From IMG/VR virus record IMGVR_UViG_3300048838_001413, positions 4,836 through 68,835 of that record: a stretch of DNA of 64,000 nucleotides; one strand, 5' to 3'. Made by a program: the position numbers and the translations under genes. The notes under the pieces are model-generated. The model searched no databases. It saw only the letters and a list, made by a program, of their open reading frames with translations, and was not told where the DNA came from. This DNA is from a virus. Below, piece by piece: positions 327-63,923 of this stretch. Numbering within the stretch: the stretch's first letter is position 1; every line of letters starts with the position of its first letter.

Positions 327-359
327 GGCAGGGTTAACGCTGGCCGGCTGCCACTCAGC
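327..359 (-). repeat. Early-gene leader pseudoknot repeat, copy 1
   Basis: + strand GGCAGGGTTAACGCTGGCCGGCTGCCACTCAGC. Confidence 0.9.
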
Positions 360-379
360 TTTGAAAAATTTTCCAATTT

Positions 380-793
380 TTAAATCTGATCTCTATAGGG
401 ATCATTTAACGCATCGTTGACATCTTCCCAACATGCGAGATACCATTCCTGAGCATCTTCGCCCGAGAACCATGCGGGAGTAAAGCCCTTGATTCCGTGG
501 GCTTCGTGAAATTCGCCGCTGATCTCGAAAGGTTCAGCAATGCCATGTTCGTCGAACTTGATGTCAAGCGATATTCCATACCCGTAAGGGTCGGGCAGGT
601 GCTCAAACACCTGTTTCATCAGGGCATCAACTTTCGGGGCTTCTTCATCGGTAAAAAGCCGGTTGTTTCCTATGGTAATTACATCAGCAGCCGGATCGTC
701 GGGGTGATATAGTTCACCATTTTTTGCTAACTGAGCGAGAAACCTTTTGGCTTCTGCCTCTGAATTGATACTTTCGGGGAGGGTTGTTTTCAT
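380..793 (-). CDS. Hypothetical phage protein
   Basis: 137 aa ORF, co-oriented with neighbours. Confidence 0.75.
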   Translation of the reverse strand: MKTTLPESINSEAEAKRFLAQLAKNGELYHPDDPAADVITIGNNRLFTDEEAPKVDALMKQVFEHLPDPYGYGISLDIKFDEHGIAEPFEISGEFHEAHGIKGFTPAWFSGEDAQEWYLACWEDVNDALNDPYRDQI

Positions 794-1311
794 ACATAGA
801 ATTTGTTAATTGACCAATAAAGTTTTTCGCTGATCTGTTTTGCCTTATATAACGGGCAAAACTTTGCACCGGCCTCAAACTGTGACGGGGTGAGGGGTGT
901 TTTGTATTCGTTTTCGCCATTCAACCAGGCGTTGAATTGCCCGAGAAGCGAAACGATGAAAGGGGATTTTTGATTTTGTGCCCAACCATACCAAAATTTT
1001 AAACGATCGGATAAATCTGAAAATCTGATAAACGCATCTTTGCTTAGGCTGAGCACACATTTTCCGGCCAATGCAACCGAAAATTTGAGTGCAACTTCGT
1101 GCCGGAGGTAATCTGCCTCATTCATCCATTCGGGCAGAATTTCGGTGCGCTGCTTATACATAGGCACATCGATAGACTGATCGAAGTCGTGAGAAACAAA
1201 CTTTTTGGTAAGCTGTTTCAGGTCGCCGGTAAAGTTCTCAGCGAAGCATAAAGCACCGTAAGTGCCTTGATTTTCGCCATCGGCGTGATAGATGATAACT
1301 TGCTTTTTCAT
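790..1311 (-). CDS. Hypothetical protein (likely start MKKQVII at 1311)
   Basis: Start abuts the stop of 1313..1549; stop overlaps the next start. Confidence 0.7.
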   Translation of the reverse strand: MKKQVIIYHADGENQGTYGALCFAENFTGDLKQLTKKFVSHDFDQSIDVPMYKQRTEILPEWMNEADYLRHEVALKFSVALAGKCVLSLSKDAFIRFSDLSDRLKFWYGWAQNQKSPFIVSLLGQFNAWLNGENEYKTPLTPSQFEAGAKFCPLYKAKQISEKLYWSINKFYV

Positions 1312-1312
1312 G

Positions 1313-1549
1313 TTATTTAGGATTAACTGCCTCTTCTTCCATGTGATAATTGGCAGATCTGTTTTGCGTTTGGTTGATGTGCTGCATATTATACACATCA
1401 TCACTGAGAAGCTTGCCTTCTGTGCTTGCTTTTGCGTGTCGTTTGGCAAATGCAATGGCTTTTCCTTTCGAGGTAAACAGCCCCAAAATAGCCATGCTTG
1501 CGTATTCATGCCACGCATTACATGAATAAAGGATTGTTGTTTTTTTCAC
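1313..1549 (-). CDS. Hypothetical protein
   Basis: 78 aa, start 17 nt after repeat copy 2. Confidence 0.7.
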   Translation of the reverse strand: MKKTTILYSCNAWHEYASMAILGLFTSKGKAIAFAKRHAKASTEGKLLSDDVYNMQHINQTQNRSANYHMEEEAVNPK

Positions 1550-1566
1550 TTTTATTGGGTATTAAA

Positions 1567-1599
1567 GGCAGGGTTAACGGAGGCCGGCTGCCACTCTCC
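1567..1599 (-). repeat. Leader pseudoknot repeat, copy 2
   Basis: GGCAGGGTTAACGGAGGCCGGCTGCCACTCTCC. Confidence 0.9.
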
Positions 1600-1607
1600 T
1601 GATTGGG

Positions 1608-1736
1608 TTAAGGAATAACCTTGCTTTTCTTGTTATCGATTAAGCAGAAATACACACCTTTTTGGTTGATTTTTGCTTTTGCTATTTTGTAAAGCAGGTT
1701 TTTATTTTTCAGCGTTTCAAGTTTGATGATTTTCAT
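1608..1736 (-). CDS. Small basic protein (42 aa, below the ORF-track cutoff)
   Basis: MKIIKLETLKNKNLL...KVIP; fills the gap between a CTATA-N16-ATTGG motif and repeat copy 2. Confidence 0.5.
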   Translation of the reverse strand: MKIIKLETLKNKNLLYKIAKAKINQKGVYFCLIDNKKSKVIP

Positions 1737-1760
1737 GGCTGTAAAATTTTTCCAATTATT

Positions 1761-3158
1761 TTATTCAGCCATTATAGCAGTTAAGTTGTTGGCAAAATCC
1801 CACAGTTCGTCGGTATGCTTTACCCACCACACTTTCGAGAAACGTGACCAGCGAAACCCTGTCATTTTCAGCAATTCGATGATGGTATCATCCGGTTTGG
1901 ATGAAAAGGAAATTTCAATGCCGTTTTTCTCTTCGTTTTTACGCACTACAATGCCGGCGTTATCGATGGGTTCAGCGTGCATGGGTTCGGTTTCGTCCGG
2001 TTGCTCCGTGATGGCTTTCCATTTGTGATTTTCCTGATCACGAACGATAGAAAAGGGGGTTGATGGGATTTCGAGTTGATAGAAAATACGATTCAACTCT
2101 TCCCGCTCTGTACCAAATTCGTTTGTTTTGTGATTTTCTTTGACAAGCGCCGCTATAATAGCCTCGGTTTCGTCAGACATTGAGCGATCTTCAAACACAT
2201 AATTGCATCCGCCGAAAACTTCGTTGAAAAGATCGGGGCTGTAGTCACGGAAATCGCCTGACGAATCGGTAACGTGATCTTCATACTTTGAAGAGATCTC
2301 CTTCACCTGGTTTTTAGTTGGCCCGTCCGTCCAGCGAATATCACAGGAAGAATACGAACTTGTGATGCTGAATTTTACTTCCGGAAAAAGGCGTTTCAAT
2401 TCAATGCGAAGATTCACGGCCACATGCTTTCCACCGCCTGAATTTCGGGAAGGTTTCTGCAAATACGGGTAACTTTGCTCAATCTCAGCGATCTGAGCAT
2501 CGCGCTCAGCTTTGGCAGCGGCTTCACGGGCAGGGCGGGCATCCTCGTCGGCCTGAGCCTTGGCAAGTGCTTTTTCGAGTAATTCGGCAGCAAATTCAGG
2601 AGAAACAACATCGCCCTTTTTGTAGTATTTCCCAATGCCGGACTTGTGCTCAATATCACGCAGGTATGACAAGCTATCATGCGTAATTTGAAGATTGGTT
2701 TCGTTTACGGTGTAATAGTCAAACTCGTCCAGTTTGTAAATAATTAATCGTTTATCATAACTTACGTTCTGACCGGAATCATTCATGAAAACAACCTGCC
2801 CAACCTCGATTTTATACGCTTCGTCCTTTGATGGGAGTTCGTCGGTATTGGCCTGAAACTTTGCCAAAGCAGCCATATGCAGGGCTTTTACCTTTGCCTC
2901 TGTGGCTATTGCTTTTTCAGAACCGAGTTCGATGGTTTTTTCCATATCGCTCATTGAGAACGAAACGCAATACATAGAGCCTGATGTTCCGGCATCGTTT
3001 ACCTTCATGGCATAAGACCTTATGCCACCCCTGCCTTTAGAGGTTATTATCTCATAGCAATACCCTTTTATTTTGATAAGGGTTTCGCCCATCCACTCAC
3101 CATGGCTGCGGGTAATTCGGGTTTTTGGTTCTTCGGTAATGAATTTTGATTTTTCCAT
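1761..3158 (-). CDS. LPD29 (large polyvalent protein-associated domain 29)-containing protein
   Basis: VAVNLRIELKRLFPEVKFSI...IRWTDGPT motif; C-terminal GIEISFSSKP...GFRWSRFSKVWW domain. Confidence 0.7.
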   Translation of the reverse strand: MEKSKFITEEPKTRITRSHGEWMGETLIKIKGYCYEIITSKGRGGIRSYAMKVNDAGTSGSMYCVSFSMSDMEKTIELGSEKAIATEAKVKALHMAALAKFQANTDELPSKDEAYKIEVGQVVFMNDSGQNVSYDKRLIIYKLDEFDYYTVNETNLQITHDSLSYLRDIEHKSGIGKYYKKGDVVSPEFAAELLEKALAKAQADEDARPAREAAAKAERDAQIAEIEQSYPYLQKPSRNSGGGKHVAVNLRIELKRLFPEVKFSITSSYSSCDIRWTDGPTKNQVKEISSKYEDHVTDSSGDFRDYSPDLFNEVFGGCNYVFEDRSMSDETEAIIAALVKENHKTNEFGTEREELNRIFYQLEIPSTPFSIVRDQENHKWKAITEQPDETEPMHAEPIDNAGIVVRKNEEKNGIEISFSSKPDDTIIELLKMTGFRWSRFSKVWWVKHTDELWDFANNLTAIMAE

Positions 3159-3174
3159 TGGTTTGAAATTTTTC

Positions 3175-3208
3175 GGCAGGGTTAACTGAGGCCAGCTGCT
3201 ACTCTCGG
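3175..3208 (-). repeat. Leader pseudoknot repeat, copy 3
   Basis: GGCAGGGTTAACTGAGGCCAGCTGCTACTCTCGG. Confidence 0.9.
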
Positions 3209-3247
3209 TTAAAATTTTCCAATTCTGAGATTAAACCCTTATAGAGT

Positions 3248-3454
3248 TTATAATTCGTTAAAGAAAAAGTTGAAATACTCTTTGTTGTGCTCCTGATTAT
3301 TCAGGTAATTACACATTTGCTTTTTTAACGCCTTTGGCATAGCTTTGAATTGCTCCCTTGCCTGAGCTCTTTGCCCGTTGATTACAGATTCGACACACAT
3401 ATCGAAGTACTGTTCTACTGTTTTAAATCCGTAAAATTTTAAAAGCTTTTTCAT
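3248..3454 (-). CDS. Hypothetical protein
   Basis: 68 aa ORF lying between repeat copies 3 and 4. Confidence 0.75.
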   Translation of the reverse strand: MKKLLKFYGFKTVEQYFDMCVESVINGQRAQAREQFKAMPKALKKQMCNYLNNQEHNKEYFNFFFNEL

Positions 3455-3470
3455 TGGTTTGAAATTTTTC

Positions 3471-3504
3471 GGCAGGGTTAACTGAGGCCAGCTGCTACTC
3501 TCGG
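3471..3504 (-). repeat. Leader pseudoknot repeat, copy 4
   Basis: Identical to copy 3, including flanks. Confidence 0.9.
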
Positions 3505-3543
3505 TTAAAATTTTCCAATATTTGAGATAGTCCCTTATAGGGT

Positions 3544-4809
3544 TTAAGCCACTTCCAATTCGAGGACTTTCTTTATTTTCCGTATATTTTTTTTCACGGT
3601 TTTGATTATTTCGTCATGGTATTCCGTTGGCTGATTAAACTTTCCACGGGATTGCCTGATGTCGAAACTTTCGAGGTTAACTTCAATGGTTTCGAGCCTT
3701 TGTTCGCCTTTCTTTGCGCTAAGGATAAGGCTTTCGGGTTTTGCGTAATATTTGTTTTCAAATACGCAATGGTGTAACACATCGCCCTCGATCTGAAATT
3801 CCTGCACACTTTTAAGCGGGGTAATTTCGATATCCTTGCTTTTGATAAGCAGGTCGAAGAATTTTTCTTTTTCCTGTTGAAATTGTGCTTCGGCTTCCCT
3901 GATCTTTTTCGCATTTTCCTCAGCCGTTTGTTTACGACGAAATTCAGCCCGTTTTTTTGCCCAATAATCATGAGCCTGTTGCAGGTTTTCGGGGCATACA
4001 TACTTCGGGTTGCGTGTATCTTTGCCGAAAACAGTGAGATTATCAACCATATCCTGCCAATTGGTTACGTCAGAAACGATGTAATTATTCCGGATGCAGA
4101 TTTTAACGGTTGGCCAGTATTTATCAAGATTAAAACCTTTCACCAAATAATAGCCCAAAAGGTTCATCTGCTTTGCTTTCAGCAGGGTTTCGGCTCTGCA
4201 ATCCGTAATAATAGCCGGAAACAAATCAGAAAAGCTGATCGGGTGGCAGTCTTTTTCAAACCCGTTGCGCTTGATAATATCGATTACTTTTTGCCTCGGG
4301 TAAACGAACGGGAACAGGCGGTAACGCTGATGGAAATTCCGTATTTCCATTTCTGAGTTAAATGACCATAAATCGTAATAAAAGTAACTCATGCCGGTAC
4401 GTTTGGCGATGATGGTTTCTTTGCCATTGCTGTCGTACCACAACTGAACCACTTCGCTCCAAAAGTATTGGGCTTTTTTACCCACCTTGCAACTTTTTTC
4501 CACCCAAAAATATCTAACCACCTGATAGCCGTTTGATACGGTAAGAATTGCAGCATATTCTTTTCCGCTACAGGTTCGCGCTTTAGTACCGAGCAGTTCA
4601 AATGCTGAGCCACATTCGGGGCAGGTGTTTTCTTCGCCCTTATTAGGCCAGCGATGGCCGCACTCAAAACAAACGTACTCTTTTTTGGTGCGATAGCCCC
4701 AATTCGGGAAGCAGTTCTTAAACGCCCACGCCTTTTGCACTGCCGTGATTTTTGGCAGCTTTTTGCTCAGGCTGAGGATCTTTTCCTGTGTTTTATTTTT
4801 CGGCTTCAT
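3544..4809 (-). CDS. PcfJ domain-containing protein
   Basis: Zn ribbon CFECGH...CPECG; C-terminal EGDVLHHCVF...ETIEV...QSRG; adjacent to PcfK. Confidence 0.85.
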   Translation of the reverse strand: MKPKNKTQEKILSLSKKLPKITAVQKAWAFKNCFPNWGYRTKKEYVCFECGHRWPNKGEENTCPECGSAFELLGTKARTCSGKEYAAILTVSNGYQVVRYFWVEKSCKVGKKAQYFWSEVVQLWYDSNGKETIIAKRTGMSYFYYDLWSFNSEMEIRNFHQRYRLFPFVYPRQKVIDIIKRNGFEKDCHPISFSDLFPAIITDCRAETLLKAKQMNLLGYYLVKGFNLDKYWPTVKICIRNNYIVSDVTNWQDMVDNLTVFGKDTRNPKYVCPENLQQAHDYWAKKRAEFRRKQTAEENAKKIREAEAQFQQEKEKFFDLLIKSKDIEITPLKSVQEFQIEGDVLHHCVFENKYYAKPESLILSAKKGEQRLETIEVNLESFDIRQSRGKFNQPTEYHDEIIKTVKKNIRKIKKVLELEVA

Positions 4810-4820
4810 TTCAGGCAGTT

Positions 4821-5237
4821 TTAGAAAAGTGATAACTGGCTTTTGCTGTGGGATTGCTCCGGTTCGTCGGTTTCATCCGTTTCATCGGCCTCCGGTTCGG
4901 TTTCGTCGGGTTCATCGGTTTCATCGGTTTCATCGGTTTCCGTTTCCGTTTCGGGTTCAACCTCGACAACAGCCTCGGGAGCATGAATTACTTCACAGTT
5001 AACCGGTTGGCCAACCTCGAGGTTATCTTCGTCAAAGTAATGCACCGCCATGCCGTACACTTCGGCATCGGTAAAGGCATTGCAGCCGCTTTTCTTCACC
5101 TGATTGAGAATATAGGTTACACAGTCGTCAATGTTTTTCCCCTCTTTGCCCAGGGAAATAGCGAATTGATCATCACGAACGGCTCGCATGGCAATGTATT
5201 CGGTGATAACGTTTGTAAAACTTTCGGTAGCTTTCAT
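4821..5237 (-). CDS. PcfK-like protein with acidic DET-repeat tail
   Basis: KNIDDCVTYILNQVKKSGCNAFTDAEVYGMAVHYFDED; ends QLSLF. Confidence 0.85.
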   Translation of the reverse strand: MKATESFTNVITEYIAMRAVRDDQFAISLGKEGKNIDDCVTYILNQVKKSGCNAFTDAEVYGMAVHYFDEDNLEVGQPVNCEVIHAPEAVVEVEPETETETDETDETDEPDETEPEADETDETDEPEQSHSKSQLSLF

Positions 5238-5251
5238 TGGTTTGATATTTC

Positions 5252-5285
5252 GGCAGGGTTAACTGAGGCCAGCTGCCACTCTCAG
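5252..5285 (-). repeat. Leader pseudoknot repeat, copy 5
   Basis: GGCAGGGTTAACTGAGGCCAGCTGCCACTCTCAG. Confidence 0.9.
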
Positions 5286-5315
5286 TGAAAATTTTCCAAT
5301 ATTTAATCAAAGCCC

Positions 5316-5390
5316 TTATAGCAGTCTTACCAACTGAAAGGCCAGGTAAATTATCGCGATTGCGATAACCGCGGGGGTAATTAAACCCAT
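5316..5390 (-). CDS. 24-aa hydrophobic peptide
   Basis: MGLITPAVIAIAIIYLAFQLVRLL; single TM segment; fills an intergenic gap. Confidence 0.45.
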   Translation of the reverse strand: MGLITPAVIAIAIIYLAFQLVRLL

Positions 5391-5406
5391 GGCTGTGTTG
5401 CAGATT

Positions 5407-5616
5407 TTAATTGCTTTTTTCATGGCTGAGGAAGTTGTAAAATTTATTTTCGTTTTCAACATCGAGCATCCGGACGAAAGTGGTAATCGACCGGTTGCTT
5501 TTTAGGGTAAACTTATTCCATAAGTGAGCGGCCAAATCATTCCCGAATATTTTAGAGAATAAATCCGGTGTTGCTGTGCTCTCAAATGAAAGTAGTTTTT
5601 GGATTTCAGTTTTCAT
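5407..5616 (-). CDS. Hypothetical protein (start MKTEIQK)
   Basis: Overlaps the stop of 5606..5830. Confidence 0.65.
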   Translation of the reverse strand: MKTEIQKLLSFESTATPDLFSKIFGNDLAAHLWNKFTLKSNRSITTFVRMLDVENENKFYNFLSHEKSN

Positions 5617-5830
5617 TTTTATCCTCCCGTAATTTAGCTGCATAATACAGCGAATCAGGTTTCGAGAATCCGGCTTCCACGTAAGCGATAACCCATGCTT
5701 TATTTTCGGGATATCCCTGTTTTTGATAGTGAGTGGCGAGCCGGTTTGCTTTGTCAATTTTGACAAGCATGAAACAGCATATCACGATAACCAGCATGAC
5801 TGCTTTCGCTATGATTTTTTCGGTTTTCAT
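5606..5830 (-). CDS. Small membrane-anchored protein
   Basis: N-terminal hydrophobic helix. Confidence 0.65.
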   Translation of the reverse strand: MKTEKIIAKAVMLVIVICCFMLVKIDKANRLATHYQKQGYPENKAWVIAYVEAGFSKPDSLYYAAKLREDKNEN

Positions 5831-5842
5831 ACTTCCGCCCCC

Positions 5843-7546
5843 TTATATTGCGTGATAACTGAGGCCGACGGTCTGCATGGCTTCATCAAGCTGAGCACGA
5901 CGTTTCTTGGAAAACAAATAACCATCCCTGCGCTCAGTACCAACGAGGATTTTGCATTTACTTCCGTATTTGAGCAAAAATTCATCGGGCAGTAAATCGG
6001 TTAAGCCGACTACGCCAAATGCTTTTTCGGTAACGCTTTCAATTACCGTGAGTAATTCAGGAAGATCTTCCTGCTCCGGCTCCGGTTCGGTTTCATCCAC
6101 GATAGCCTCGGGAATTTCTTCGGCTTCGGGTTCGGGTTTCGGCATTCTTGCGATAATAATTTCCCCGATTTTTCTTTCGGGCTGAATAGGGTTCTCAACT
6201 ACTTCGGCCGGTGCTTCGGCCTCGGGTGAAATTTCCCCGTTTTCATTTTCGGGCTGAATAGTGGTTTCGGCAGGGGTTTCGGCAGGGGTTTCAGCTGCGA
6301 TGATTTCGTCGAAACGGGCTTTCACCTCGCTTGCCAAAATAGTTACACCGCACTTTGATTTCAGGACATCAAGCCCGTGTAAATGCGATAATACTGAATG
6401 CCGGCTGCTTTTGTTGCCATCGCCTGAACAATTCATGATGATTTCGTTACTCCAATCCCGCTCGCTTTTGCGATACATAGCCAACCATTTCTCCAAAAGA
6501 GATTCAGCTTGTACGTTGGAACCCTTGCCGATTTTGCTACCAAATACCGGCTCTCCGATCGCTGCATCATCGATCATAAGCGGCATTAACAGCGTATTGC
6601 CGTTAATAATCATTGCCCTGTTTGAAGCCGACATTTCTATCGTAGTTGATTCGCTTGAAGTGTCGATGCCCTTTATCATATACGAGCCATTAAAAGCGAT
6701 AGGGAAGTACTTTGCACCAAACAGTACGCACGGCAATTCTGTGCGATATTCTGTATTCAAATCCAAATCCTCGGATTCGATTACCAAGCGATCAGGATGG
6801 GCAATCATGAGAACATTTTGCGTTACCTTGTTTGCCGATTTCAGCGCGTTTTTAACAGCGGATACAAAATCCGAAGTTTTTACAATCAGGCTTGCCGGAT
6901 TGTCGATCGGTATTACATTCCAATACTCAGGGTATCTACCCTCGATTAACCTGAAATTAATAATCTGTTTTTCAGAGATTATTTCCAAGCGAGGGTATTG
7001 CGAATTGTCAAAACTCACAACACCCGCTGCTATATTCGCAGCTGCAGCTTTCGGGATAATGACATTGCTGACCGTGGTCTGCTTATCTTTAAACCAGCGA
7101 AGCATATGGGCATCGGTAGCTGCAATTTGTTTTCCGCCTAAAAATACGCCTGACATTGCCGGCCGCAGATCATCATTTCCTGTGAAAGGCACAAGGCTTG
7201 CTACCTGAGCGGCCTCTTCCTCGCTAATTGTGTCGATGTAATCTTTGCAAGGAATAGCAAGCGGAAATTCATCAATATTGCCAATCAACGCAAATTTGCT
7301 TGCAGAGTTTCCTTTTTTTACGTGAAGAAACCCGTCACGGATTTCGGCGGAATCGTAACTGCCCACTTTGTTCAGGGATGTCAGGTCAATTACCCCTTCG
7401 CCCTTGATGTCCGTTTGCACGGAAAGACGAATTTCGAGGTTGTCACTGGTCGCCCATCCGTTTTGAATTAAGGCGGTTTGATCGATGATCGGCAGGGTGC
7501 TGCCTTTGGTAAGTTTCATCATTCGTTTGATGTCACTGTTTTTCAT
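5843..7546 (-). CDS. DNA polymerase III beta-clamp-like protein with long C-terminal extension
   Basis: DnaN-like motifs DDLRPAMSGVFL, AATDAHML, IEGRYPEYWNVIP, IAFNGSY, LLMPL. Confidence 0.8.
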   Translation of the reverse strand: MKNSDIKRMMKLTKGSTLPIIDQTALIQNGWATSDNLEIRLSVQTDIKGEGVIDLTSLNKVGSYDSAEIRDGFLHVKKGNSASKFALIGNIDEFPLAIPCKDYIDTISEEEAAQVASLVPFTGNDDLRPAMSGVFLGGKQIAATDAHMLRWFKDKQTTVSNVIIPKAAAANIAAGVVSFDNSQYPRLEIISEKQIINFRLIEGRYPEYWNVIPIDNPASLIVKTSDFVSAVKNALKSANKVTQNVLMIAHPDRLVIESEDLDLNTEYRTELPCVLFGAKYFPIAFNGSYMIKGIDTSSESTTIEMSASNRAMIINGNTLLMPLMIDDAAIGEPVFGSKIGKGSNVQAESLLEKWLAMYRKSERDWSNEIIMNCSGDGNKSSRHSVLSHLHGLDVLKSKCGVTILASEVKARFDEIIAAETPAETPAETTIQPENENGEISPEAEAPAEVVENPIQPERKIGEIIIARMPKPEPEAEEIPEAIVDETEPEPEQEDLPELLTVIESVTEKAFGVVGLTDLLPDEFLLKYGSKCKILVGTERRDGYLFSKKRRAQLDEAMQTVGLSYHAI

Positions 7547-7563
7547 TTTGATATGGTTTTTTT

Positions 7564-7597
7564 GGCAGGGTTAACTGAGGCCGGCTGCCACTCTCGG
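7564..7597 (-). repeat. Leader pseudoknot repeat, copy 6
   Basis: GGCAGGGTTAACTGAGGCCGGCTGCCACTCTCGG. Confidence 0.9.
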
Positions 7598-7636
7598 TTG
7601 AAAATTTTCCAATATTTTAATTAAGCCCTTATAGGG

Positions 7637-8617
7637 TTAATCAATCCAAAAAGTTCCGCAGTCGAGGCACTTGTTTCCGCATGGGTAATTGTTTATATAA
7701 ATCACGTTTCGGTGCCGGGTATATTTCATATCACATGGGGTGCATTTACCGGCTTTGAATGTGGCCTCATAAATGCGATCTCTTTCGAGAATAGCATTGA
7801 GGCTGCTTTTGGGCGCTTCGATCGCAATTTCGTCATGCTTAAACGAAAAGCAGGTATCATCGCACCAGTTCGAGAACATTCCGCAAACATCATAAGTGTA
7901 ATTATAGCTGATGCTGCGTTCAAATTTCAGATTATCTCTATCGAAAGGAAGCTGAAATTCATGGCCGTTGATTTGGCAATTATCGCCGGAACCATTGCCT
8001 GTATTAATAATTGCGATATGTGCATTTTTGAAAATGACCACATTCATATCGTCTGAAATGTCGAGCAGATCATCAATTCCTGATGTAAAATATACGACCA
8101 ACTGGCCGCCATAACTTGCCTGTTGCAGCATCATATCAATCGCACTATCGTGTATTGAATTTGTAATTGACAGCGCTTTTTTTATGATTATTCTATCAAG
8201 GCGATATGCAGCAGCACTTTGACCCCAACCATCAAATTCAAGCCCCGTATCGTAAAAGAAAATTTCGTCGCCGGTGTTTTTAATCAGCTGTTTAATGTCG
8301 AGATCAACGCTGATAAGATCACGTGCCCAATCTTTGAAATCATCCTCCCATTCGGTTTGTTCGCCAAGTTCGGCTTCAATTTGTTGCGCGAAGTATTCGA
8401 GCACTTCGGTAACTGCATCTCTTTCAAGACCGCAGATATGCTCGAGGTTGCAATCCCACAACTCATTCTCAACCTCCAATAATCCTTCCTTTGAGGAAAT
8501 AATCTTTTCGATTTGCTCTTTGCCCAATTCCTCGCGATAATCCCAATAAACTTCCGGCTGATGTTTTTCGATGTAAGCGATGATCTCTGCTTTTAGGTTT
8601 TCTGAAAGGTTTTCCAT
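7637..8617 (-). CDS. Hypothetical protein with C-terminal Cys/His cluster
   Basis: 326 aa; ends CTPCD...H...PCGNKCLDCGTFWID. Confidence 0.8.
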   Translation of the reverse strand: MENLSENLKAEIIAYIEKHQPEVYWDYREELGKEQIEKIISSKEGLLEVENELWDCNLEHICGLERDAVTEVLEYFAQQIEAELGEQTEWEDDFKDWARDLISVDLDIKQLIKNTGDEIFFYDTGLEFDGWGQSAAAYRLDRIIIKKALSITNSIHDSAIDMMLQQASYGGQLVVYFTSGIDDLLDISDDMNVVIFKNAHIAIINTGNGSGDNCQINGHEFQLPFDRDNLKFERSISYNYTYDVCGMFSNWCDDTCFSFKHDEIAIEAPKSSLNAILERDRIYEATFKAGKCTPCDMKYTRHRNVIYINNYPCGNKCLDCGTFWID

Positions 8618-8632
8618 TTTCGTAATTATTTC

Positions 8633-8665
8633 GGCAGGGGTAACGCTGGCCAGCTGCCACTCAGC
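8633..8665 (-). repeat. Leader pseudoknot repeat, copy 7
   Basis: GGCAGGGGTAACGCTGGCCAGCTGCCACTCAGC. Confidence 0.9.
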
Positions 8666-8675
8666 TTGAAATTAA

Positions 8676-8831
8676 TTACCAGATTTCAGTCCCGTTTGGT
8701 AGCCGGTCAACTTTAAGCCAGTTTTTAATCCATTGCTTTGCAGCGTTGAGGCTTGATTGACTTTCCGGAAAGTTATAACCGTAAAAATTGCCCTGAAGCC
8801 GGAACCACCTGTATTCTTTTCGTTTTGCCAT
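8676..8831 (-). CDS. 51-aa protein not in the ORF track
   Basis: MAKRKEYRWFRLQGNFYGYNFP...GTEIW; ATG 15 nt after repeat copy 8. Confidence 0.7.
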   Translation of the reverse strand: MAKRKEYRWFRLQGNFYGYNFPESQSSLNAAKQWIKNWLKVDRLPNGTEIW

Positions 8832-8846
8832 TTTCGTAATTATTTC

Positions 8847-8880
8847 GGCAGGGGTAACTGAGGCCGGCTGCCACTCTCGG
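8847..8880 (-). repeat. Leader pseudoknot repeat, copy 8
   Basis: GGCAGGGGTAACTGAGGCCGGCTGCCACTCTCGG. Confidence 0.9.
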
Positions 8881-8895
8881 TTGAAAATTTTCCAA

Positions 8896-9174
8896 TTATT
8901 TTAAATTCTCATTATAGGGATATTTCCCCACACCATAAGGAAATTGAACTTTTTGCAAAATGGGCACATGCGCATTCCAAACAACGCGGATAGTTTGCCC
9001 ATTATAAAGCAACGAAATATCACCGGCTGAATAGAACGATCTTTGCACCAATCGTTTCCAATTGGCAATGAGTTCCTTTTTCGTTTTTATACGCCACCCA
9101 ATGTAGCTGTTTCCATACCTGACAACGTATTTGTCGGGTAAACTGTCGCTATAAGCATTCCAAATTCTTTCCAT
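8896..9174 (-). CDS. Hypothetical protein (start MERIWNAY)
   Basis: ATG downstream of the ATTGGAAAATTTT motif. Confidence 0.65.
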   Translation of the reverse strand: MERIWNAYSDSLPDKYVVRYGNSYIGWRIKTKKELIANWKRLVQRSFYSAGDISLLYNGQTIRVVWNAHVPILQKVQFPYGVGKYPYNENLK

Positions 9175-9229
9175 TTTATTTCGTTTTAAGTGAAAATTTT
9201 CCAATATTTTGAAACGGCCTTTATAGAGA

Positions 9230-9532
9230 TTATAATCTCGGCCTGACCTGTTCAACAAACCACCGGTTTTGCGGCCAATTCAACGGCATGTTATATTTTT
9301 CGGCGATCAGCTGATCGTACCTTTCGCTAAATCTTTCGTATTGTACCTCTCCGGCTCTTTTGCTTGAAATTCGTTGAACCAGTACAAGCTTTGTCCCGAA
9401 AAGTTTACGAAAGTTTCCGTCGGTTGTTTTCGGCAGCCTTGCGAAATTCCTTTCGCTGATAATGGTAACGCTCTCTTTCCCTTCGTAAGAAAGGTCGCTG
9501 AGCAAAACATGAAATTGTCGGTTGTTATACAT
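9230..9532 (-). CDS. Hypothetical protein (start MYNNRQF)
   Basis: ORF in a tightly packed operon. Confidence 0.65.
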   Translation of the reverse strand: MYNNRQFHVLLSDLSYEGKESVTIISERNFARLPKTTDGNFRKLFGTKLVLVQRISSKRAGEVQYERFSERYDQLIAEKYNMPLNWPQNRWFVEQVRPRL

Positions 9533-9543
9533 CGCTTTAATTT

Positions 9544-9750
9544 TTAAACGTTTATAATTATCCTGGGCGCAATGTCCCAAAATTTACTTTCCGGTGTGTC
9601 GGCCGGTGCTGTGAATGATTTCCGGTATTCTTGTCCGGTATCTCTCTCGTAATAAGAGAAAACAGCCCATGCAACCTTTTTGCGGCGATCTTTGCTATCC
9701 CTGCGGGAATGATCGTATTTCTCGAGGGATTTTCGGATTAAGTGCGACAT
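9544..9750 (-). CDS. Hypothetical protein
   Basis: 68 aa, operon packing. Confidence 0.65.
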   Translation of the reverse strand: MSHLIRKSLEKYDHSRRDSKDRRKKVAWAVFSYYERDTGQEYRKSFTAPADTPESKFWDIAPRIIINV

Positions 9751-9753
9751 TTT

Positions 9754-9996
9754 TTAGCCCTCCATTGCGAAAAATACACGAACCTTTGCGGGAAAGTATT
9801 GCAGATTTTGTTCAGTGATTACCACTTTCCCTTTATATATCGCCATTGTGCTCTCGTAAATATATTCGAGCTGTCGATAATGAATACGCTCGATAGGGCT
9901 GTTGTGGTTTTTGGCAAGTTCCTCGAAAGATTTAGTTCCGGCAGCTGTAGCCCGCTGCATGGTTGCCACCTCTCTACGCAAAAATGAAATATTCAT
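9754..9996 (-). CDS. Hypothetical protein
   Basis: Start 15 nt after repeat copy 9. Confidence 0.7.
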   Translation of the reverse strand: MNISFLRREVATMQRATAAGTKSFEELAKNHNSPIERIHYRQLEYIYESTMAIYKGKVVITEQNLQYFPAKVRVFFAMEG

Positions 9997-10011
9997 GATA
10001 TAAATAATTTC

Positions 10012-10044
10012 GGCAGGGGTAACGGAGGCCGGCTGCCACTCTCC
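10012..10044 (-). repeat. Leader pseudoknot repeat, copy 9
   Basis: GGCAGGGGTAACGGAGGCCGGCTGCCACTCTCC. Confidence 0.9.
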
Positions 10045-10073
10045 AAATTTTTTCCAATTTTTTTCAAAGCCCT

Positions 10074-10841
10074 TTATAGGGATTTAATAATCCATTCCTT
10101 ACGGTCGTTTTCCTCACGTTCCTCACGGGCTTTTGTTTCGAGTTTTTCAACCGATAGCATTAAATTCCATACGAAAATTGAGCCCCGAAGTTCATCCATC
10201 ATCTGCTGAACAGGTATCAAGCGCTTTTTAAACGATTGAATGAATTTATCTTTTGGCACCTCGGTTATTTTGCCATTATTCCCGATAAAGAACCGGTCAT
10301 TTCCCAACACGCTCGAAAGTAAGCTAACAACCTCCAAGGTTACATCTTCGGCCTTAATTTCTCCGTTATATATCCACCGCAATCCCCTGCTTGTGAAAAA
10401 TGATGTCGTTCTGCAAGCCAGTAAGCTTTTCAATGCTTTTTCAAGCTTTTCAACGCAAAATATATTGGTTCCGGTATCTCTCATGCCGTAATAGAATTCG
10501 CCGGTATAGCCAGCAAGTTCTTTCTTATCGTGATATGTAAAATCACGATGAAAATGTTTCAGGTAAGGGGTTACGATTGGCTGTAATTGCTCATGGTAAG
10601 GCTTTACTATCGGGTTTACATAACCCAAACCGCCGAGAGTTACCCCTTTCATGTAATACTTCGAGCGGGTAAAGTGGTTTCGCTCTGCAATGCTCATTAC
10701 GATTTCGCAAATGTGTTTTCCATTCACCTTAACCTCGAATTTGCAATAATTCGTGGTTTTAATCGAAGAGGTAAATTGTTCGGGGTTGCCGTATTTTTTC
10801 AGCATTTTCTCCCGCAAATTCGTGTAATTAATAGCGTTCAT
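10074..10841 (-). CDS. Hypothetical protein
   Basis: 255 aa ORF. Confidence 0.75.
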   Translation of the reverse strand: MNAINYTNLREKMLKKYGNPEQFTSSIKTTNYCKFEVKVNGKHICEIVMSIAERNHFTRSKYYMKGVTLGGLGYVNPIVKPYHEQLQPIVTPYLKHFHRDFTYHDKKELAGYTGEFYYGMRDTGTNIFCVEKLEKALKSLLACRTTSFFTSRGLRWIYNGEIKAEDVTLEVVSLLSSVLGNDRFFIGNNGKITEVPKDKFIQSFKKRLIPVQQMMDELRGSIFVWNLMLSVEKLETKAREEREENDRKEWIIKSL

Positions 10842-10845
10842 GGTT

Positions 10846-10938
10846 TCAGGGTTTTAAGTTGATTAGCAATATTGTTGCGAAAAATACCATCGCGACAATT
10901 ACAAACAATTTTTCGGCTGTTGACGGTTCAGTTTCCAT
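10846..10938 (-). CDS. 30-aa membrane peptide
   Basis: METEPSTAEKLFVIVAMVFFATILLINLKP; leader AATAATTACGAAAATG as in neighbouring genes. Confidence 0.55.
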   Translation of the reverse strand: METEPSTAEKLFVIVAMVFFATILLINLKP

Positions 10939-10998
10939 TTTCGTAATTATTTTCGGCATTTGTGAAAATTTTCCAATTATTTTAAATTCGCTTAATAG

Positions 10999-11235
10999 TT
11001 ATTCCCAATAAGCAATTTCAGACAACCGGTTCATGTTTTGCAAACCGGTGAAATGGTTGATAATTACCACGCTGAAAATGAAATTAGACGGGATATTAAG
11101 TACATTCGAGCAATAGCACTTGGCAACATTTACCGATTCAAACGCAGCCCCTTTTTCGATGTGATTATTCACATAATATGCAAGCCACGAAAGGGCTAAA
11201 AATTGCTGCGAGGTGAGATTTTTTTTGTAATCCAT
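10999..11235 (-). CDS. Hypothetical protein, first gene of the early region
   Basis: Start 16 nt after repeat copy 10. Confidence 0.7.
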   Translation of the reverse strand: MDYKKNLTSQQFLALSWLAYYVNNHIEKGAAFESVNVAKCYCSNVLNIPSNFIFSVVIINHFTGLQNMNRLSEIAYWE

Positions 11236-11251
11236 TTTCGTAATTATTATC

Positions 11252-11284
11252 GGCAGGGGTAACGGAGGCCGGCTGCCACTCTCC
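11252..11284 (-). repeat. Leader pseudoknot repeat, copy 10
   Basis: Identical core to copy 9. Confidence 0.9.
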
Positions 11285-11334: not shown

Positions 11335-11364
11335 CAAAGTTAACACTAAATTTGCATATGTCAA
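11335..11364 (-). promoter_or_regulatory. Bacteroidetes housekeeping-sigma promoter driving the early region
   Basis: Minus strand TTG-N19-TAACTTTG matches the -33/-7 consensus (TTTG/TAnnTTTG). Confidence 0.7.
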
Positions 11365-61741: not shown

Positions 61742-62212
61742 TTAATGATTTATTTGGGCACATAATTCTTTTCCTGTTAAAATTACAACGATTTTAAGGG
61801 TGCTTAATTCGCGGCCAAATTTGCGAACAACTTCCTCAATTTTTTTGATATGCCGTTCGCGGGCTTTGTCGGAATTTTTGTACCGGTTAAAAACAATGGA
61901 GCTGAGAAATTCACGGGTGTGGCCAGTGTATTTTGCTATACCCGCCACCGTAAAGGGGTAACGATCAAAGAACTCAGCAACATCCATGCTTCCTTCTTCA
62001 TCGAGTCCCGAAAGCCTTATGCCCGATAACTCAGCTCCGATCTTGTTCAGATATTCATTCACCAGCACCAGGTTATTGTAGTCGGTATTGGTGTATTGTT
62101 TGGTTTTTGTCAGTTTTACAATCCATTCGCGGCTCCGGTGCAGCGAAACAGCAATCTGACTTTGTTTGAACGGGTATTTTTCAAATACCATCTGAAGATT
62201 TAACATCATCAT
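61742..62212 (-). CDS. Tandem double-HTH-like regulator (start MMMLNLQ)
   Basis: Internal duplication FEKYPFKQSQIAVSLHRSREW / FDRYPFTVAGIAKYTGHTREF. Confidence 0.65.
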   Translation of the reverse strand: MMMLNLQMVFEKYPFKQSQIAVSLHRSREWIVKLTKTKQYTNTDYNNLVLVNEYLNKIGAELSGIRLSGLDEEGSMDVAEFFDRYPFTVAGIAKYTGHTREFLSSIVFNRYKNSDKARERHIKKIEEVVRKFGRELSTLKIVVILTGKELCAQINH

Positions 62213-62226
62213 AATTTTTTTTTTGG

Positions 62227-62257
62227 CAAAGATAAGTACATATGTGGCAAATGTCAA
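62227..62257 (-). promoter_or_regulatory. Bacteroidetes-type promoter of the operon containing the cassette array
   Basis: Minus strand TTG-N20-TATCTTTG. Confidence 0.7.
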
Positions 62258-62347
62258 CCACAAAATTGTTAAATTTTTCCAATTTGGCCGATATGCCGAA
62301 TAGAAAAAATATTCAGCTACACTCAGCTTCAAATCCTTTGCCGTGTA

Positions 62348-62860
62348 TCAGAAATGAACTTTGCGTTTCCAGGTAACTTTTGAGGACCAGGATCCGATTG
62401 ATTCCTTTCGCAGAATGCCATAGTAATAAAACTGGTAGTAAATGGTTCCGGATTCGCACAGTGTATCGCCGACCATGAATGCAGTAACGTTCCACTGCCA
62501 TATTGTACGCTGAATGCCGCAAGTGGTGTTTGTTTGATCGAATACCATTTCATAGCGCATGGTATCGCAAGGAGTAACCAGATCGAAGGTATCGGGATGT
62601 GAATACCATTGCACTTTGAACAACGAATCATTCAGGTATTGAATGCGCCGCCATGCCGGCATTGTTTTGGAAGCGACATTGGGCAGGTCGAAGGTATTTT
62701 CGCCTTGCCACTCGCCTTCTTTTGGGGTTCTCACGTCTTTGTTGGTGCGGAATCCCCTGGCTGTTCTGTTTGTAATCTCTGAACCAGGGTTTTCAGGTTC
62801 TTTTTCGCACGATATAAGGCATATCATCATGCCCAATGCGAACATCATAAGTGTTTTCAT
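62348..62860 (-). CDS. Putative lipoprotein
   Basis: MKTLMMFALGMMICLIS-C lipobox; start 15 nt after repeat copy 11. Confidence 0.7.
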   Translation of the reverse strand: MKTLMMFALGMMICLISCEKEPENPGSEITNRTARGFRTNKDVRTPKEGEWQGENTFDLPNVASKTMPAWRRIQYLNDSLFKVQWYSHPDTFDLVTPCDTMRYEMVFDQTNTTCGIQRTIWQWNVTAFMVGDTLCESGTIYYQFYYYGILRKESIGSWSSKVTWKRKVHF

Positions 62861-62875
62861 TTTACATTGATTTAC

Positions 62876-62908
62876 GGCAGGGTTAACGGAGGCCAGCTGC
62901 TACTCTCA
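62876..62908 (-). repeat. Leader pseudoknot repeat, copy 11
   Basis: GGCAGGGTTAACGGAGGCCAGCTGCTACTCTCA. Confidence 0.85.
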
Positions 62909-62913
62909 GGGTA

Positions 62914-63276
62914 TTATTTTTTGTGCTGATCGCTGAATTTGAACCGCACGATTTTTACTGCATCGTGAAATACCACAGCATTTATTTTTACGCCTATAGC
63001 TGTTTTCAGGCGTTCGCAGGTAATTTTATAGCTTTCGCGGCAAGGCTCGATCAATGAGGCATAGTATTGAGCATCGGTCAATGCAGGCGGGGGCGGGGGT
63101 ATGGTTTCGGGTTCAATGGGTTGGCCGACGACCACGGCAATATCTTCGCAGGTTTTTTCAAGACCCTCGAGTTTTTTTGTGCTTAATTTTTGCAGGAAGT
63201 CGAGGCGAAATCCGTTTCGGGTAAGAATCCGGATGATGGTTTCCCGGTAATTGGCTTCAACAGGAGAATAATTCAT
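62914..63276 (-). CDS. Hypothetical protein
   Basis: Start 17 nt after repeat copy 12. Confidence 0.7.
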   Translation of the reverse strand: MNYSPVEANYRETIIRILTRNGFRLDFLQKLSTKKLEGLEKTCEDIAVVVGQPIEPETIPPPPPALTDAQYYASLIEPCRESYKITCERLKTAIGVKINAVVFHDAVKIVRFKFSDQHKK

Positions 63277-63293
63277 TTTTATAAGGATTTATT

Positions 63294-63326
63294 GGCAGGG
63301 TTAACGCTGGCCGGCTGCCACTCAGC
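63294..63326 (-). repeat. Leader pseudoknot repeat, copy 12
   Basis: GGCAGGGTTAACGCTGGCCGGCTGCCACTCAGC. Confidence 0.9.
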
Positions 63327-63635: not shown

Positions 63636-63872
63636 CTATTTAACATTCAGGTTTGGAAATTTATGGCCAAGGTGTTTTCCGATTCTTGCCTCGAGTTGTG
63701 TTTTGAGGTTTTTCTTCCTGGTTAACAACGACTGAGATTTTTGCAGTACAAGCAGATCATCAATCAGCTCGAGTTCATCAAGCATATCTTGTTTAGATTT
63801 GATGTCGGGTGACTTCTGCAGTACTTTTACCCATGTGGGTAATTCTCTGATTTGAATTTGGCTGAATCCCAT
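63636..63872 (-). CDS. Hypothetical protein (start MGFSQIQ)
   Basis: ATG 18 nt after repeat copy 13. Confidence 0.65.
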   Translation of the reverse strand: MGFSQIQIRELPTWVKVLQKSPDIKSKQDMLDELELIDDLLVLQKSQSLLTRKKNLKTQLEARIGKHLGHKFPNLNVK

Positions 63873-63890: not shown

Positions 63891-63923
63891 GGCAGGGTTA
63901 ACGCTGACCGGCTGCCACTCAGC
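63891..63923 (-). repeat. Leader pseudoknot repeat, copy 13
   Basis: GGCAGGGTTAACGCTGACCGGCTGCCACTCAGC. Confidence 0.9.

Follow-up and report, generated by a model that had tools for sequence, protein, structure and literature searches.

Starts of early genes in this phage are preceded by a recurrent ~34-nt element whose interleaved arms covary as an H-type pseudoknot and which ends 14-19 nt before the start codon in all 23 copies, drawn from four genomes. Our tentatively favored explanation is that the element forms a pseudoknot in the mRNA, marks the edge of the ribosome landing pad and controls translation, 5′-end stability or both. The host group is Bacteroidales and the phage is temperate. 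"The window" refers throughout to the whole 64-kb stretch that was analyzed (64,000 nt of the 68,835-bp virus record).

A pattern search for GGCAG-N16-CTGCC (≤1 mismatch) gave 14 matches in the window, compared with 0.76 expected from shuffled sequences (maximum 3; none of 100 shuffles reached 14). The match at 30120 is a chance occurrence unrelated to the pseudoknot family. The other 13 are the copies listed in the initial annotation, each at its listed position and with exactly the reported gap to the start codon. An unfiltered covariance-model search of both strands of the window recovered the identical 13 copies at 50.5-57.4 bits; the next-best match scored only 11.4 bits, which agrees with the earlier remark that the structural and replication modules hold no copy. 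All 13 lie on the coding (minus) strand, and they precede 12 ATG codons and one GTG that open ORFs of 51-567 aa. The full record has 17 pattern matches in a single orientation, with none on the opposite strand and none for a reversed-pattern control. Sixteen are distinct copies, as the 17th (window 63891) falls in the duplicated record end, where the final 175 nt repeat genome positions 1-99 and 2089-2198. There, the sequence downstream of copy 66 runs directly into the sequence upstream of copy 2089, with the junction placed precisely at the 34-nt motif; this join could reflect a genuine deletion variant or an artefact of assembly. A further seven copies come from three other phage or prophage genomes.

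Copy 1 (327..359, 57.4 bits) has the arms b GCUG and b′ CAGC and stands, with a 16-nt A-rich spacer, before a 119-aa ORF that opens with the ATG at 310. The same arms occur in copy 7 (8633..8665; GUUACC variant; 15-nt spacer; 326-aa ORF 7637-8617), which has the upstream stop codon 10 nt before it, in copy 12 (63294..63326; 17-nt spacer; 120-aa ORF 62914-63276) and in copy 13 (63891..63923; 18-nt spacer; 78-aa ORF 63636-63872), the record-end duplicate of the copy at genome 66. GGAG/CUCC arms characterize copy 2 (1567..1599; 17-nt spacer; GTG of a 78-aa ORF, 1313-1549), copy 9 (10012..10044; 15-nt spacer; 80-aa ORF 9754-9996) and copy 10 (11252..11284; 16-nt spacer; 78-aa ORF 10999-11235), the first in the leftward early region. 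CGAG/CUCA arms are found in copy 3 (3175..3207; AGCAG/CUGCC; 16-nt spacer; 465-aa LPD29-domain protein 1761-3158), copy 4 (3471..3503; 33-mer identical to copy 3; 16-nt spacer; 68-aa ORF 3248-3454), copy 6 (7564..7596; 17-nt spacer; 567-aa protein 5843-7546) and copy 8 (8847..8879; 15-nt spacer; 51-aa ORF 8676-8831). Copy 5 (5252..5284; UGAG/CUCA; 14-nt spacer) precedes a 138-aa PcfK-like gene (4821-5237) followed by a PcfJ-like gene (3544-4809). Copy 11 (62876..62908; UGAG/CUCC, AGCAG/CUGCC; 15-nt spacer) precedes a 170-aa ORF (62348-62860) whose ortholog in genome G003 also has a copy. All coordinates are on the minus strand.

Compensatory changes occur in both helices. S1 (b/b′) is found as GCUG/CAGC, GGAG/CUCC and UGAG/CUCA, to which the other three genomes add GUUG/CAAC or CCUG/CAGG, and S2 occurs as GGCAG/CUGCC and, in the added genomes, as AGCAC/GUGCU. 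Across the 23 copies (18 distinct rows), 95.1% of pairing cells are paired versus 75.5% in shuffles. Changes on both sides were detected in five of nine pairs, and the covariation score was reached by none of 500 shuffles (18 distinct rows). Slid-alignment controls paired in 29-56% of cells, and an extended fold model gave 96.6% paired versus 82.4% shuffled. The initial proposal of interleaved arms covarying as an H-type pseudoknot is thus borne out for both helices, also between genomes, and the idea of a portable structured element gains support from compensation in both, within and between genomes. This covariation signal draws on only four genomes and few independent events. Nested folding energies were no better than those of shuffles (z −0.72 to +0.79, six copies), which is expected for a short pseudoknot, yet lends the fold no support. 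The two helices presumably form simultaneously. A more fitting drawing of the structure is an interrupted hairpin of 8 bp (U7-G12/C29-R34 plus G15G16/C27C28), with the 4-nt 5′ flank b predicted to pair with b′ within its 10-nt loop.

Seventeen of the 33 columns are invariant across the four genomes, unpaired loop bases included, and the linker from b′ to the 3′ arm is an invariant GUUAMCC. This conservation exceeds the needs of folding alone and favors a trans-acting operator, in which a phage or host RNA-binding protein would read the knot and its invariant loop bases (A5, G15G16, G22U23U24A25, C27C28) and, once bound, block or cooperatively coat the A-rich initiation region, switching the early regulon off or on together. 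In T4, RegA represses ~30 early mRNAs; here, 16 cistrons could be controlled by a single factor. A knot with an unstructured A/U-rich translation initiation region (TIR) is also the architecture of the gene 32 operator as described in PMC3014915. We nevertheless consider this reading doubtful: the annotated parts of the phage yielded no candidate RNA-binding protein and no SSB or RegA-like gene, and none of ten small early proteins has a Pfam family above threshold.

The imperfect copies bear on which strand folds. They had been described as G-T wobbles on the plus strand and A-C mismatches in the mRNA. This is correct for copies 3, 4, 6 and 8, which carry C·A or A·C in the mRNA; copy 11 differs, having one A·C and one U·C, the latter mismatched on either strand. 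The distinct rows contain seven non-Watson-Crick cells (C·A at 1-21 three times, A·C at 8-33 three times and one G·U), and on the plus (template) strand, six of the seven cells with a transition-type mismatch become G·T. That bias suggests action at the DNA level, whereby the template (window plus) strand would extrude as a hairpin, pseudoknot or cruciform and work either as a signal (promoter-like or regulatory) or as a preferred recombination site at which gene cassettes are shuffled. Promoters in ssDNA are known from the leading regions of conjugative elements, and the neighboring genes (PcfJ, PcfK, LPD29, methyltransferase) resemble such regions. The record-end chimera joins exactly at the motif, as though it had arisen by loss of the cassette that copies 66 and 2089 flank, but it can be an assembly artefact of the 34-nt repeat. 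Against a DNA-level role, one homolog has a G·U on the mRNA strand at pair 8-33, and an extra closing pair, 7-34 (16 of 22 distinct rows have U·G there, four U-A and one C-G), is compatible with the mRNA strand alone; this pair varies one-sidedly and could be a coincidence. Both observations weaken the template-strand ssDNA alternative raised in the initial annotation. Copies of the element also follow promoters of three unrelated types or lie in gaps that contain no promoter, and there is no reason to expect ssDNA entry in this phage, which encodes a tape measure protein and an integrase. N4-type hairpin promoters go with a virion RNA polymerase gene and place a hairpin upstream of the transcription start. 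Here, an N4-type virion RNA polymerase is absent: the largest window ORF is the 1392-aa tape measure protein, with no giant polymerase-size ORF, no ORF in the remaining 4.8 kb of the record exceeds 646 aa, and a canonical promoter ends 50 nt before one of the pseudoknot copies. Overall, we judge a DNA-level role very unlikely, and the strand that folds is probably the RNA.

The sequences upstream of the copies are varied. About ten copies are preceded by a bipartite CCCTATAAGGG/ATTGGAAAATTTT element, which copy 2 lacks, copy g4367 lies downstream of a late-type TGTCCTTT/TAATTTTA promoter, and four copies have no recognizable promoter or occur in gaps of ≤58 nt. A canonical Bacteroidetes-type promoter (11335..11364, minus strand; TTGACA, 16 nt, TAACTTTG) ends 50 nt upstream of copy 10 and is assigned only by its match to TTTG/TAnnTTTG, which we take to be the Bacteroidetes promoter consensus. 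If this promoter is active, copy 10 would lie within a 5′ UTR. The coding strand of the full record has 20 TAnnTTTG boxes, of which only one (w11335-11342) is just upstream of a copy, and the repeated box before copies, ATTGGAAAATTTT, differs from the host consensus. Given three promoter types or none upstream, the pseudoknot appears to behave as a transcribed leader module and not as a promoter. The earlier designation as an early-gene leader holds in that the element precedes early starts, but it is not strictly bound to early promoters.

Terminator-like sites in w1-13000 numbered 18, versus 17.0 in shuffles; the one strong terminator is outside the early region, and none of the sites coincides with the pseudoknot, which has no U-tract. 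Ten of the 16 copies have a small hairpin ahead of them, directly following the stop codon of the upstream gene, as well as an AU-rich box at a distance of 4-9 nt from the knot. This arrangement is consistent with a role in processing or stability, in which the knot would be a 5′-end protector or exonuclease block and the upstream AU-rich AUUGGAAAAUUUU an endonuclease site, the early transcript being cut into stable monocistronic units. Either as a −7-like promoter element or as a cleavage site, the box would put the knot at the very 5′ end, and the outermost pair, 1-21, is the least conserved (unpaired in 5 of 18 rows). We think this distinctly unlikely, as a fixed 14-19 nt to the start codon is needless for pure 5′-end protection and copy w11252 would sit ~43 nt inside its own transcript.

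Bacteroidia ribosomes do not use Shine-Dalgarno pairing, and no Shine-Dalgarno-like core was found in the spacers of the 23 copies, which consist of 55% A, 23% U, 14% C and 7% G. The 3′ end of the knot coincides with the onset of this A-rich, G-poor stretch. Adenines occupy position −12 in 21, −13 in 20, −6 in 20 and −3 in 14 of the 23 spacers. According to work on Flavobacterium johnsoniae, A at −3, −6, −12 and −13 stimulates initiation and the −14 to −11 tract is near S1 (Baez et al., 2019, PMC6847099). Complementarity to a Bacteroidales 16S rRNA was not above that of shuffles (62, 93 and 11 of 200 shuffles equaled it).

In the landing-pad explanation that we favor, the element would be transcribed within early mRNAs and fold into a compact ~34-nt H-type pseudoknot, with its 3′ end adjoining a 14-19 nt A-rich, G-poor pad that would be the Shine-Dalgarno-less landing site of Bacteroidia ribosomes. 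The knot would lock the GC-rich leader into a self-contained fold and so determine the 5′ limit of an initiation region that stays open at all times, near the S1/30S platform contact with mRNA. This fixed limit would set ribosome-start efficiency for each cistron on a long, terminator-free early transcript. For copies directly behind a promoter, the knot would be the 5′-terminal structure of the mRNA and should slow 5′-end-dependent decay. We infer these effects on ribosomes or decay from sequence patterns. It seems rather unlikely that the knot is itself a Shine-Dalgarno-independent recruiting signal, a bacterial counterpart of a small IRES that docks on S1 or on the 30S platform and hands the A-rich pad to the decoding site. 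If it were, phage early cistrons would get privileged initiation inside a long polycistronic mRNA, and Bacteroidota phages with different families of knots would have solved one problem convergently. A natural pseudoknot-less variant (10936..10977, minus strand) has ATTGGAAAATTTT, a remnant ending in TGCC and the usual A-rich spacer before the ATG of a 31-aa hydrophobic ORF (10843-10938). This variant and the late genes show that the knot is dispensable for translation in this host.

The pseudoknot is kept at orthologous genes despite diverged proteins. Methyltransferase orthologs in G003 and G001 are 51-53% identical to the one here, and the gene has a copy in front of it in this phage and in both of those genomes; for the 170-aa gene, identity to the G003 ortholog is 41%, and the copy is retained there as well. 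The downstream genes include a methyltransferase, LPD29, PcfK and ORFs without assignment, and the knot appears to mark the boundaries of mobile gene cassettes with anti-defense-like genes (methyltransferase, PcfJ/K, LPD29). We also identified a second start-linked covarying element ("family B") in related Bacteroidales phages and once in this phage. Its 4-bp stem is 100% paired, with compensatory changes in three of four pairs, and has an AGGGCA loop in which GGC(A) can pair with the 5′ flank (U)GCC, a pairing that is invariant and hence only putative. Like the pseudoknot, family B precedes early-gene starts, in phages related via a 571-aa packaging-like protein and PcfK; it differs in sequence and leaves 8-10 nt between its end and the start, compared with 14-19 nt for the pseudoknot. 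The PcfK ortholog is preceded by the pseudoknot (family A) in this phage and by family B in L022.

These findings address how individual cistrons, especially phage messages, are selected for initiation in Bacteroidia. A 34-nt knot that is used 16 times by one phage and ends at the 5′ edge of the landing pad is a compact, testable handle, and the genome itself offers a knot-less control and compensatory variants. If ribosomes prove to be its target, the knot would represent a new class of translation signal, with possible use as an expression part in Bacteroidales genetics. An action on decay, or the binding of a regulator, would define an RNA-level phage early-gene regulon.

As first suspected, the element appears not to belong to a described RNA family: Rfam 15, whose families include preQ1-I, SAM-II, guanidine-III, pistol and twister-sister, gave no match at gathering scores in the 64-kb window, and at E up to 10 in w7400-11400 (five copies) the sole match was a spurious one to a lncRNA (E 5.9). 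A literature search did not find it described. The preQ1-I riboswitch has an A-rich 3′ tail in the P1 groove and is associated with queuosine or preQ1 genes. This candidate was rejected, as the linker GUUAMCC is not A-rich, none of the assigned downstream genes is a queuosine or preQ1 gene, and only H-type topology and size are in common. A new class of small ligand-sensing riboswitch or self-cleaving ribozyme is highly improbable. Rfam riboswitch and ribozyme models gave no match in w7400-11400 even at E up to 10, and the sixteen downstream genes are functionally unrelated, unlike a metabolite regulon. To our knowledge, all known self-cleaving ribozymes are longer than 34 nt. Phages do commonly hold multi-copy structured RNAs without an assigned role, and the ~34-nt length, H-type fold and conserved loop bases match the smallest aptamers, such as preQ1-I as described in PMC11625349.

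Several phage and bacterial systems share individual features with the element. PeSL cassettes of T4-type phages (~100 bp, repeated, intergenic) flank small accessory genes (PMC2839356, PMC4122927). As described there, they too are repeated cassettes with a stem-loop and translation start signals, and their copies recombine, shuffling genes. PeSLs consist of a sigma-70 consensus promoter and a terminator stem-loop, whereas here the structure is downstream of promoter-like boxes, has no U-tract and is independent of promoter type. A host-consensus promoter per cassette is ruled out by the single adjoining box (w11335-11342) among 20, and a PeSL-type terminator or attenuator by the w1-13000 counts and the lack of a U-tract. 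The SAS/ESAS elements of Cluster K mycobacteriophages, reported in 11-19 copies, in one orientation and in the non-structural half of temperate siphophages (PMC3203893), are likewise asymmetric conserved motifs at a short fixed distance from the starts of unrelated genes. According to that report, SAS is 13 bp long, lies 3-7 bp from the start and has an AGGAG core, and the authors found the ESAS inverted repeats unsupportive of RNA pairing; the element here is 33-34 nt long, lies 14-19 nt from the start, lacks a Shine-Dalgarno sequence and shows clear base-pair covariation. The Escherichia coli rpsO (S15) operator and S1-dependent structured leaders likewise contain a pseudoknot, located within or next to the initiation region, that interacts with 30S and S1 (PMC7038950). 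The rpsO knot, which overlaps with the TIR, acts together with S15 to trap the ribosome, whereas the knot here ends upstream of −14 and has no known protein partner. The T4 gene 32 pseudoknot, as presented in PMC3014915, lies outside the ribosome footprint and acts on initiation and mRNA stability. It nucleates gp32 and is a single copy through which one gene is autoregulated via gp32 in a Shine-Dalgarno-using host, whereas 16 copies precede unrelated genes here, in a Shine-Dalgarno-blind host and with no sequence similarity or known protein partner. Like the T4/RB69 gene 32 leader described in that source, a stretch of phage mRNA where an H-type pseudoknot precedes an unstructured A/U-rich TIR, the element combines a covarying knot with a spacer of 78% A+U.

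A 33-34-nt element, here called the knot or family A, lies upstream of start codons on the minus (coding) strand of the source phage, and the initial annotation had counted 13 copies in the window, folded as an H-type pseudoknot. A scan for GGCAG-N16-CTGCC with at most one mismatch found 14 sites where 0.76 were expected, and 13 of these coincide with the copies reported. Run without filters, a covariance model derived from those copies recovered precisely the same 13 (50.5-57.4 bits; next match 11.4 bits), and the distances from knot to next start codon were identical to those first given. The observation of a repeated, start-linked pseudoknot is confirmed and strengthened. Positions below are prefixed w for the window and g for the whole record.

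The source record, an IMG/VR virus entry of which the window covers bases 4836-68835, is 68,835 bp long, is rated complete by CheckV, and contains 17 motif matches in a single orientation. Its last 175 nt (w63826-64000; record positions 68661-68835) are a chimera, of which the first 99 nt repeat genome positions 1-99 and the last 110 nt repeat positions 2089-2198, overlapping in the 34-nt motif at which they are joined. Because this end duplicates the two other regions, the number of distinct copies is 16 and the true circle measures ~68,660 bp. The chimera reflects either misassembly at the repeat or a variant without the methyltransferase cassette. Nearly all genes of the window are on the minus strand, and the copies occupy an unbroken leftward block of ~19 kb that runs from w11284 over the record ends as far as w62348. 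Besides numerous small ORFs, the block has genes for a methyltransferase-like protein of 646 aa and for proteins with PcfJ, PcfK and LPD29 domains. The window also encodes a 1392-aa tape measure protein, a head maturation protease, a primase, a DNA methyltransferase and a tyrosine integrase; a search for tRNA-like genes found none. From its sequence, the virus is read as a probable temperate siphovirus-like phage.

The first exact motif pattern retrieved no stretches from IMG/VR, and one tolerating change in the second helix gave a single true match, the viral fragment G156. A looser pattern returned 18 stretches, 17 of them new; none of the 17 gave a model score where the pattern had matched, and these were counted as chance. 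Relatives sought through a 567-aa early protein yielded none. The marker chosen for this phage group was a 571-aa protein (w13320-15035) that adjoins a glycosyltransferase cluster, has no PHROG match at E <= 0.001, and counts 904 homologs among Bacteroidota at identities as low as 65%; those named are from Bacteroidales, Prolixibacteraceae and other Bacteroidota MAGs. Through it 71 loci were fetched, and related loci come from Draconibacterium, Mariniphaga, Marinifilum and other Bacteroidales genomes. The closest relative by this protein (L063, 83%) carries a GC-rich minisatellite (L063 11725-11930, units GCAGCCCCGGCCAAAACGGCCAAA) in the same place, downstream of the 571-aa protein gene, as the GATC minisatellite of the source phage (w11731-12246).

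Among the fetched loci, a generic pseudoknot descriptor picked out a copy with an altered second helix in L064, and the model, run against all 71 (690,749 bases), matched two copies in L064 only. With model R1 and whole-genome searches, the tally outside the source genome came to four distinct full copies plus a decayed one in genome G001, two copies in G003 and one in G156. When the model was run with stricter filters against 151 genomes from the same order as G003, that genome alone matched and the 150 others did not. A weak match in genome G002 (E 0.67) was left out of the count, and in GenBank phages family A produced nothing but a chance 20-nt match to a tail gene of a mycobacteriophage. 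The four genomes together contain 23 full copies, with 18 distinct 33-mers among them. The decayed copy (L099 14621-14650, G001; 12.3 bits) has lost 4 nt of GUUA, and just 2-5 nt separate its end from the start codon that follows, which belongs to the 567-aa-protein ortholog; the copy looks like an element being lost.

On the coding strand the consensus is b(4)-AGU-GGCAG-CYGGC-b'(4)-GUUAMCC-CUGCC. The proposed covariation of the b/b' arms, interleaved with GGCAG/CUGCC, holds: the arms occur as GCUG/CAGC, GGAG/CUCC, UGAG/CUCA, GUUG/CAAC and CCUG/CAGG, and the second helix also changes between genomes, from GGCAG/CUGCC in the source genome and G003 to AGCAC/GUGCU in G001 and G156, which amounts to two double changes. 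Modelled cells are paired in 95.1% of cases, against 75.5% in shuffled data and 29-56% in slid controls. Both sides change in five of the nine pairs, none of 500 shuffles reached the covariation score, and the column pairs with the highest mutual information are the modelled ones. Nested MFE folding of the knot was uninformative.

The second helix is extendable over a 2-nt bulge through invariant G15G16 and C27C28, and a further pair (7-34) is possible between U7 and the base that opens the spacer. Of the 23 copies, 18 have G and 4 have A at this spacer position, although the spacer overall has only 7% G; in the sole C7 copy the base is G. Adding these pairs brings the paired cells to 96.6%, compared with 82.4% in shuffles. 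The extended fold can be modelled as an 8-bp interrupted hairpin with a 10-nt loop that would pair with the 5' flank, the simultaneous presence of both helices being part of the model. Its dimensions (S1 4 bp, L1 2 nt, L2 1 nt, L3 5 nt) are sterically ordinary by the usual pseudoknot loop rules. Pairing column 8 with column 14 in place of 33 was rejected, since it suits the source genome and fails in G001 (A.A, A.C); A8 is seen solely with T14 in the source genome, a link that fails in G001. Every copy also contains 6-bp palindromes (columns 10-17 and 22-27), one being GTTAAC in 12 of the 16 copies of the source record and the other GCCGGC or CAGCTG, as set by column 14.

The initial annotation had cautioned that some imperfect pairs are mismatched in the mRNA and could form in single-stranded DNA of the template strand, and the knot may act as a DNA-level structure. 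The cells behind this caveat are real: on the mRNA strand, three distinct rows show C.A at pair 1-21 and three show A.C at pair 8-33. They perhaps represent two or three events, because copies with the same arms probably share ancestry. On the other side, a G.U on the mRNA strand is present in one G001 copy, and the U.G of pair 7-34, seen in 16 of 22 rows, can pair on that strand only; both favour the mRNA.

Promoter context matters more for the strand question than these cells. A canonical promoter, TTGACA-N16-TAACTTTG, lies 50 nt upstream of copy w11252, and copy g4367 is preceded by TGTCCTTT-N20-TAATTTTA, a type found before late genes. A bipartite hairpin-plus-box element, CCCTATAAGGG / ATTGGAAAATTTT, precedes about ten copies at a variable 4-9 nt. 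No promoter could be recognised for copies w8633, w1567, w62876 and w63294, the first of which begins 10 nt past the upstream stop codon. No intrinsic terminators were found inside the knot-bearing block. Occurring behind any promoter or none, always in sense and always at a set distance before the start codon, the knot is, we infer, a transcribed leader module and not a promoter. As a rival reading, it may be a protein operator. A sigma-54 reading (TGGCAG-N5-..GC) was rejected by inspection, since the -12 position lands in the variable b' arm.

Three near-identical promoters of the canonical Bacteroidetes type (TTGACA, 16-18 nt, TAnnTTTG) are on the minus strand: w11335-11364 heads the knot-bearing early block, w12855-12886 drives a 162-aa gene (w12303-12791) that ends in the only strong terminator (w12252-12281), and w62227-62257 is upstream of gene 61742-62332. 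The late-type promoter (source genome outside the window, G000:C1 4393-4433, locus L003) is 2 nt upstream of a knot copy in the 'early' block, and its TGTCCTTT box recurs before late genes in the source phage and the related loci L026, L027 and L080.

Spacers of the 23 copies are 14-19 nt long (16 nt in eight, 15 in six, 17 in five, 14 in two, 18 and 19 in one each) and consist of 55% A and 7% G. The A residues fall at -12 in 21 copies, -13 and -6 in 20 each, -14 in 17 and -3 in 14. Ribosome profiling and reporters in F. johnsoniae showed that initiation is stimulated by A at -3, -6, -12 and -13, with the mRNA tract from -14 to -11 near S1 (Baez et al. 2019, PMC6847099), and Bacteroidia ribosomes are reported to ignore Shine-Dalgarno sequences (PMC9976891). 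Complementarity of the element to 16S rRNA was not above that of shuffles. Given this pattern of A and ribosomes blind to Shine-Dalgarno pairing, the knot stops exactly where a near-optimal Shine-Dalgarno-less initiation region begins, which accounts for the narrow spacing. Most likely, judging from sequence, it is a transcribed pseudoknot leader that would bound the Shine-Dalgarno-less ribosome landing pad of early cistrons and tune their translation, promoter-proximal copies also tuning 5'-end stability. It may instead be a processing or stability element.

The source genome also has leaders in which ATTGGAAAATTTT is joined straight to an A-rich spacer and start, with or without the CCCTATAAGGG hairpin and with no knot (w10936-10977, w1749-1756, w9198-9228 and, outside the window, genome 3714-3757). 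At w10936-10977 (minus), where a ...TGCC remnant is followed by a 31-aa hydrophobic ORF (10843-10938), the knot looks precisely deleted. A second start-linked element, family B, is found in related phages (L022/L038, L024, L036, L046/L083 and L072), 8-10 nt from the start codon, with loop AGGGCA and a 4-bp covarying stem (CCCC/GGGG, CUGC/GCAG, CCAC/GUGG, CCGC/GCGG, CCCA/UGGG). The (U)GCC of its conserved 5' box could pair with the loop in a putative second helix, the bases of which never vary. The source phage has a similar leader (G000:C1 about 2972-3017, minus, outside the window; L002 2384-2429), with box GCCACGCCAUCGGCU, stem CCCC/GGGG and loop AGGCA, 9 nt upstream of the start of a 270-aa gene (2153-2965), so both kinds of element occur in one phage. 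Moreover, the PcfK ortholog is led by family A in the source phage and by family B in L022, and the two families therefore hold equivalent positions. GenBank phages gave one 44-nt, 82% family B match and 10 chance matches; the former (MT836733.1 5636-5679) is in an unannotated 16-kb 'Bacteriophage sp.' from human faeces, which hints that family B may extend to gut phages.

The initial annotation did not recognise the element as a described RNA family, and no Rfam model matches. A riboswitch or ribozyme is a further possible rival reading. The literature searched, judged by titles and abstracts, contained no description of such an element. Three known systems are comparable: the PeSL cassettes of T4-type phages, described as repeated promoter and terminator cassettes that mediate gene shuffling (PMC2839356, PMC4122927); the SAS/ESAS of Cluster K mycobacteriophages, described as start-linked repeats of unknown function without covariation (PMC3203893); and the T4 gene 32 leader, in which a pseudoknot precedes an unstructured TIR (PMC3014915). 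The knot has position or architecture in common with each of these, but appears to lack the features that define them.
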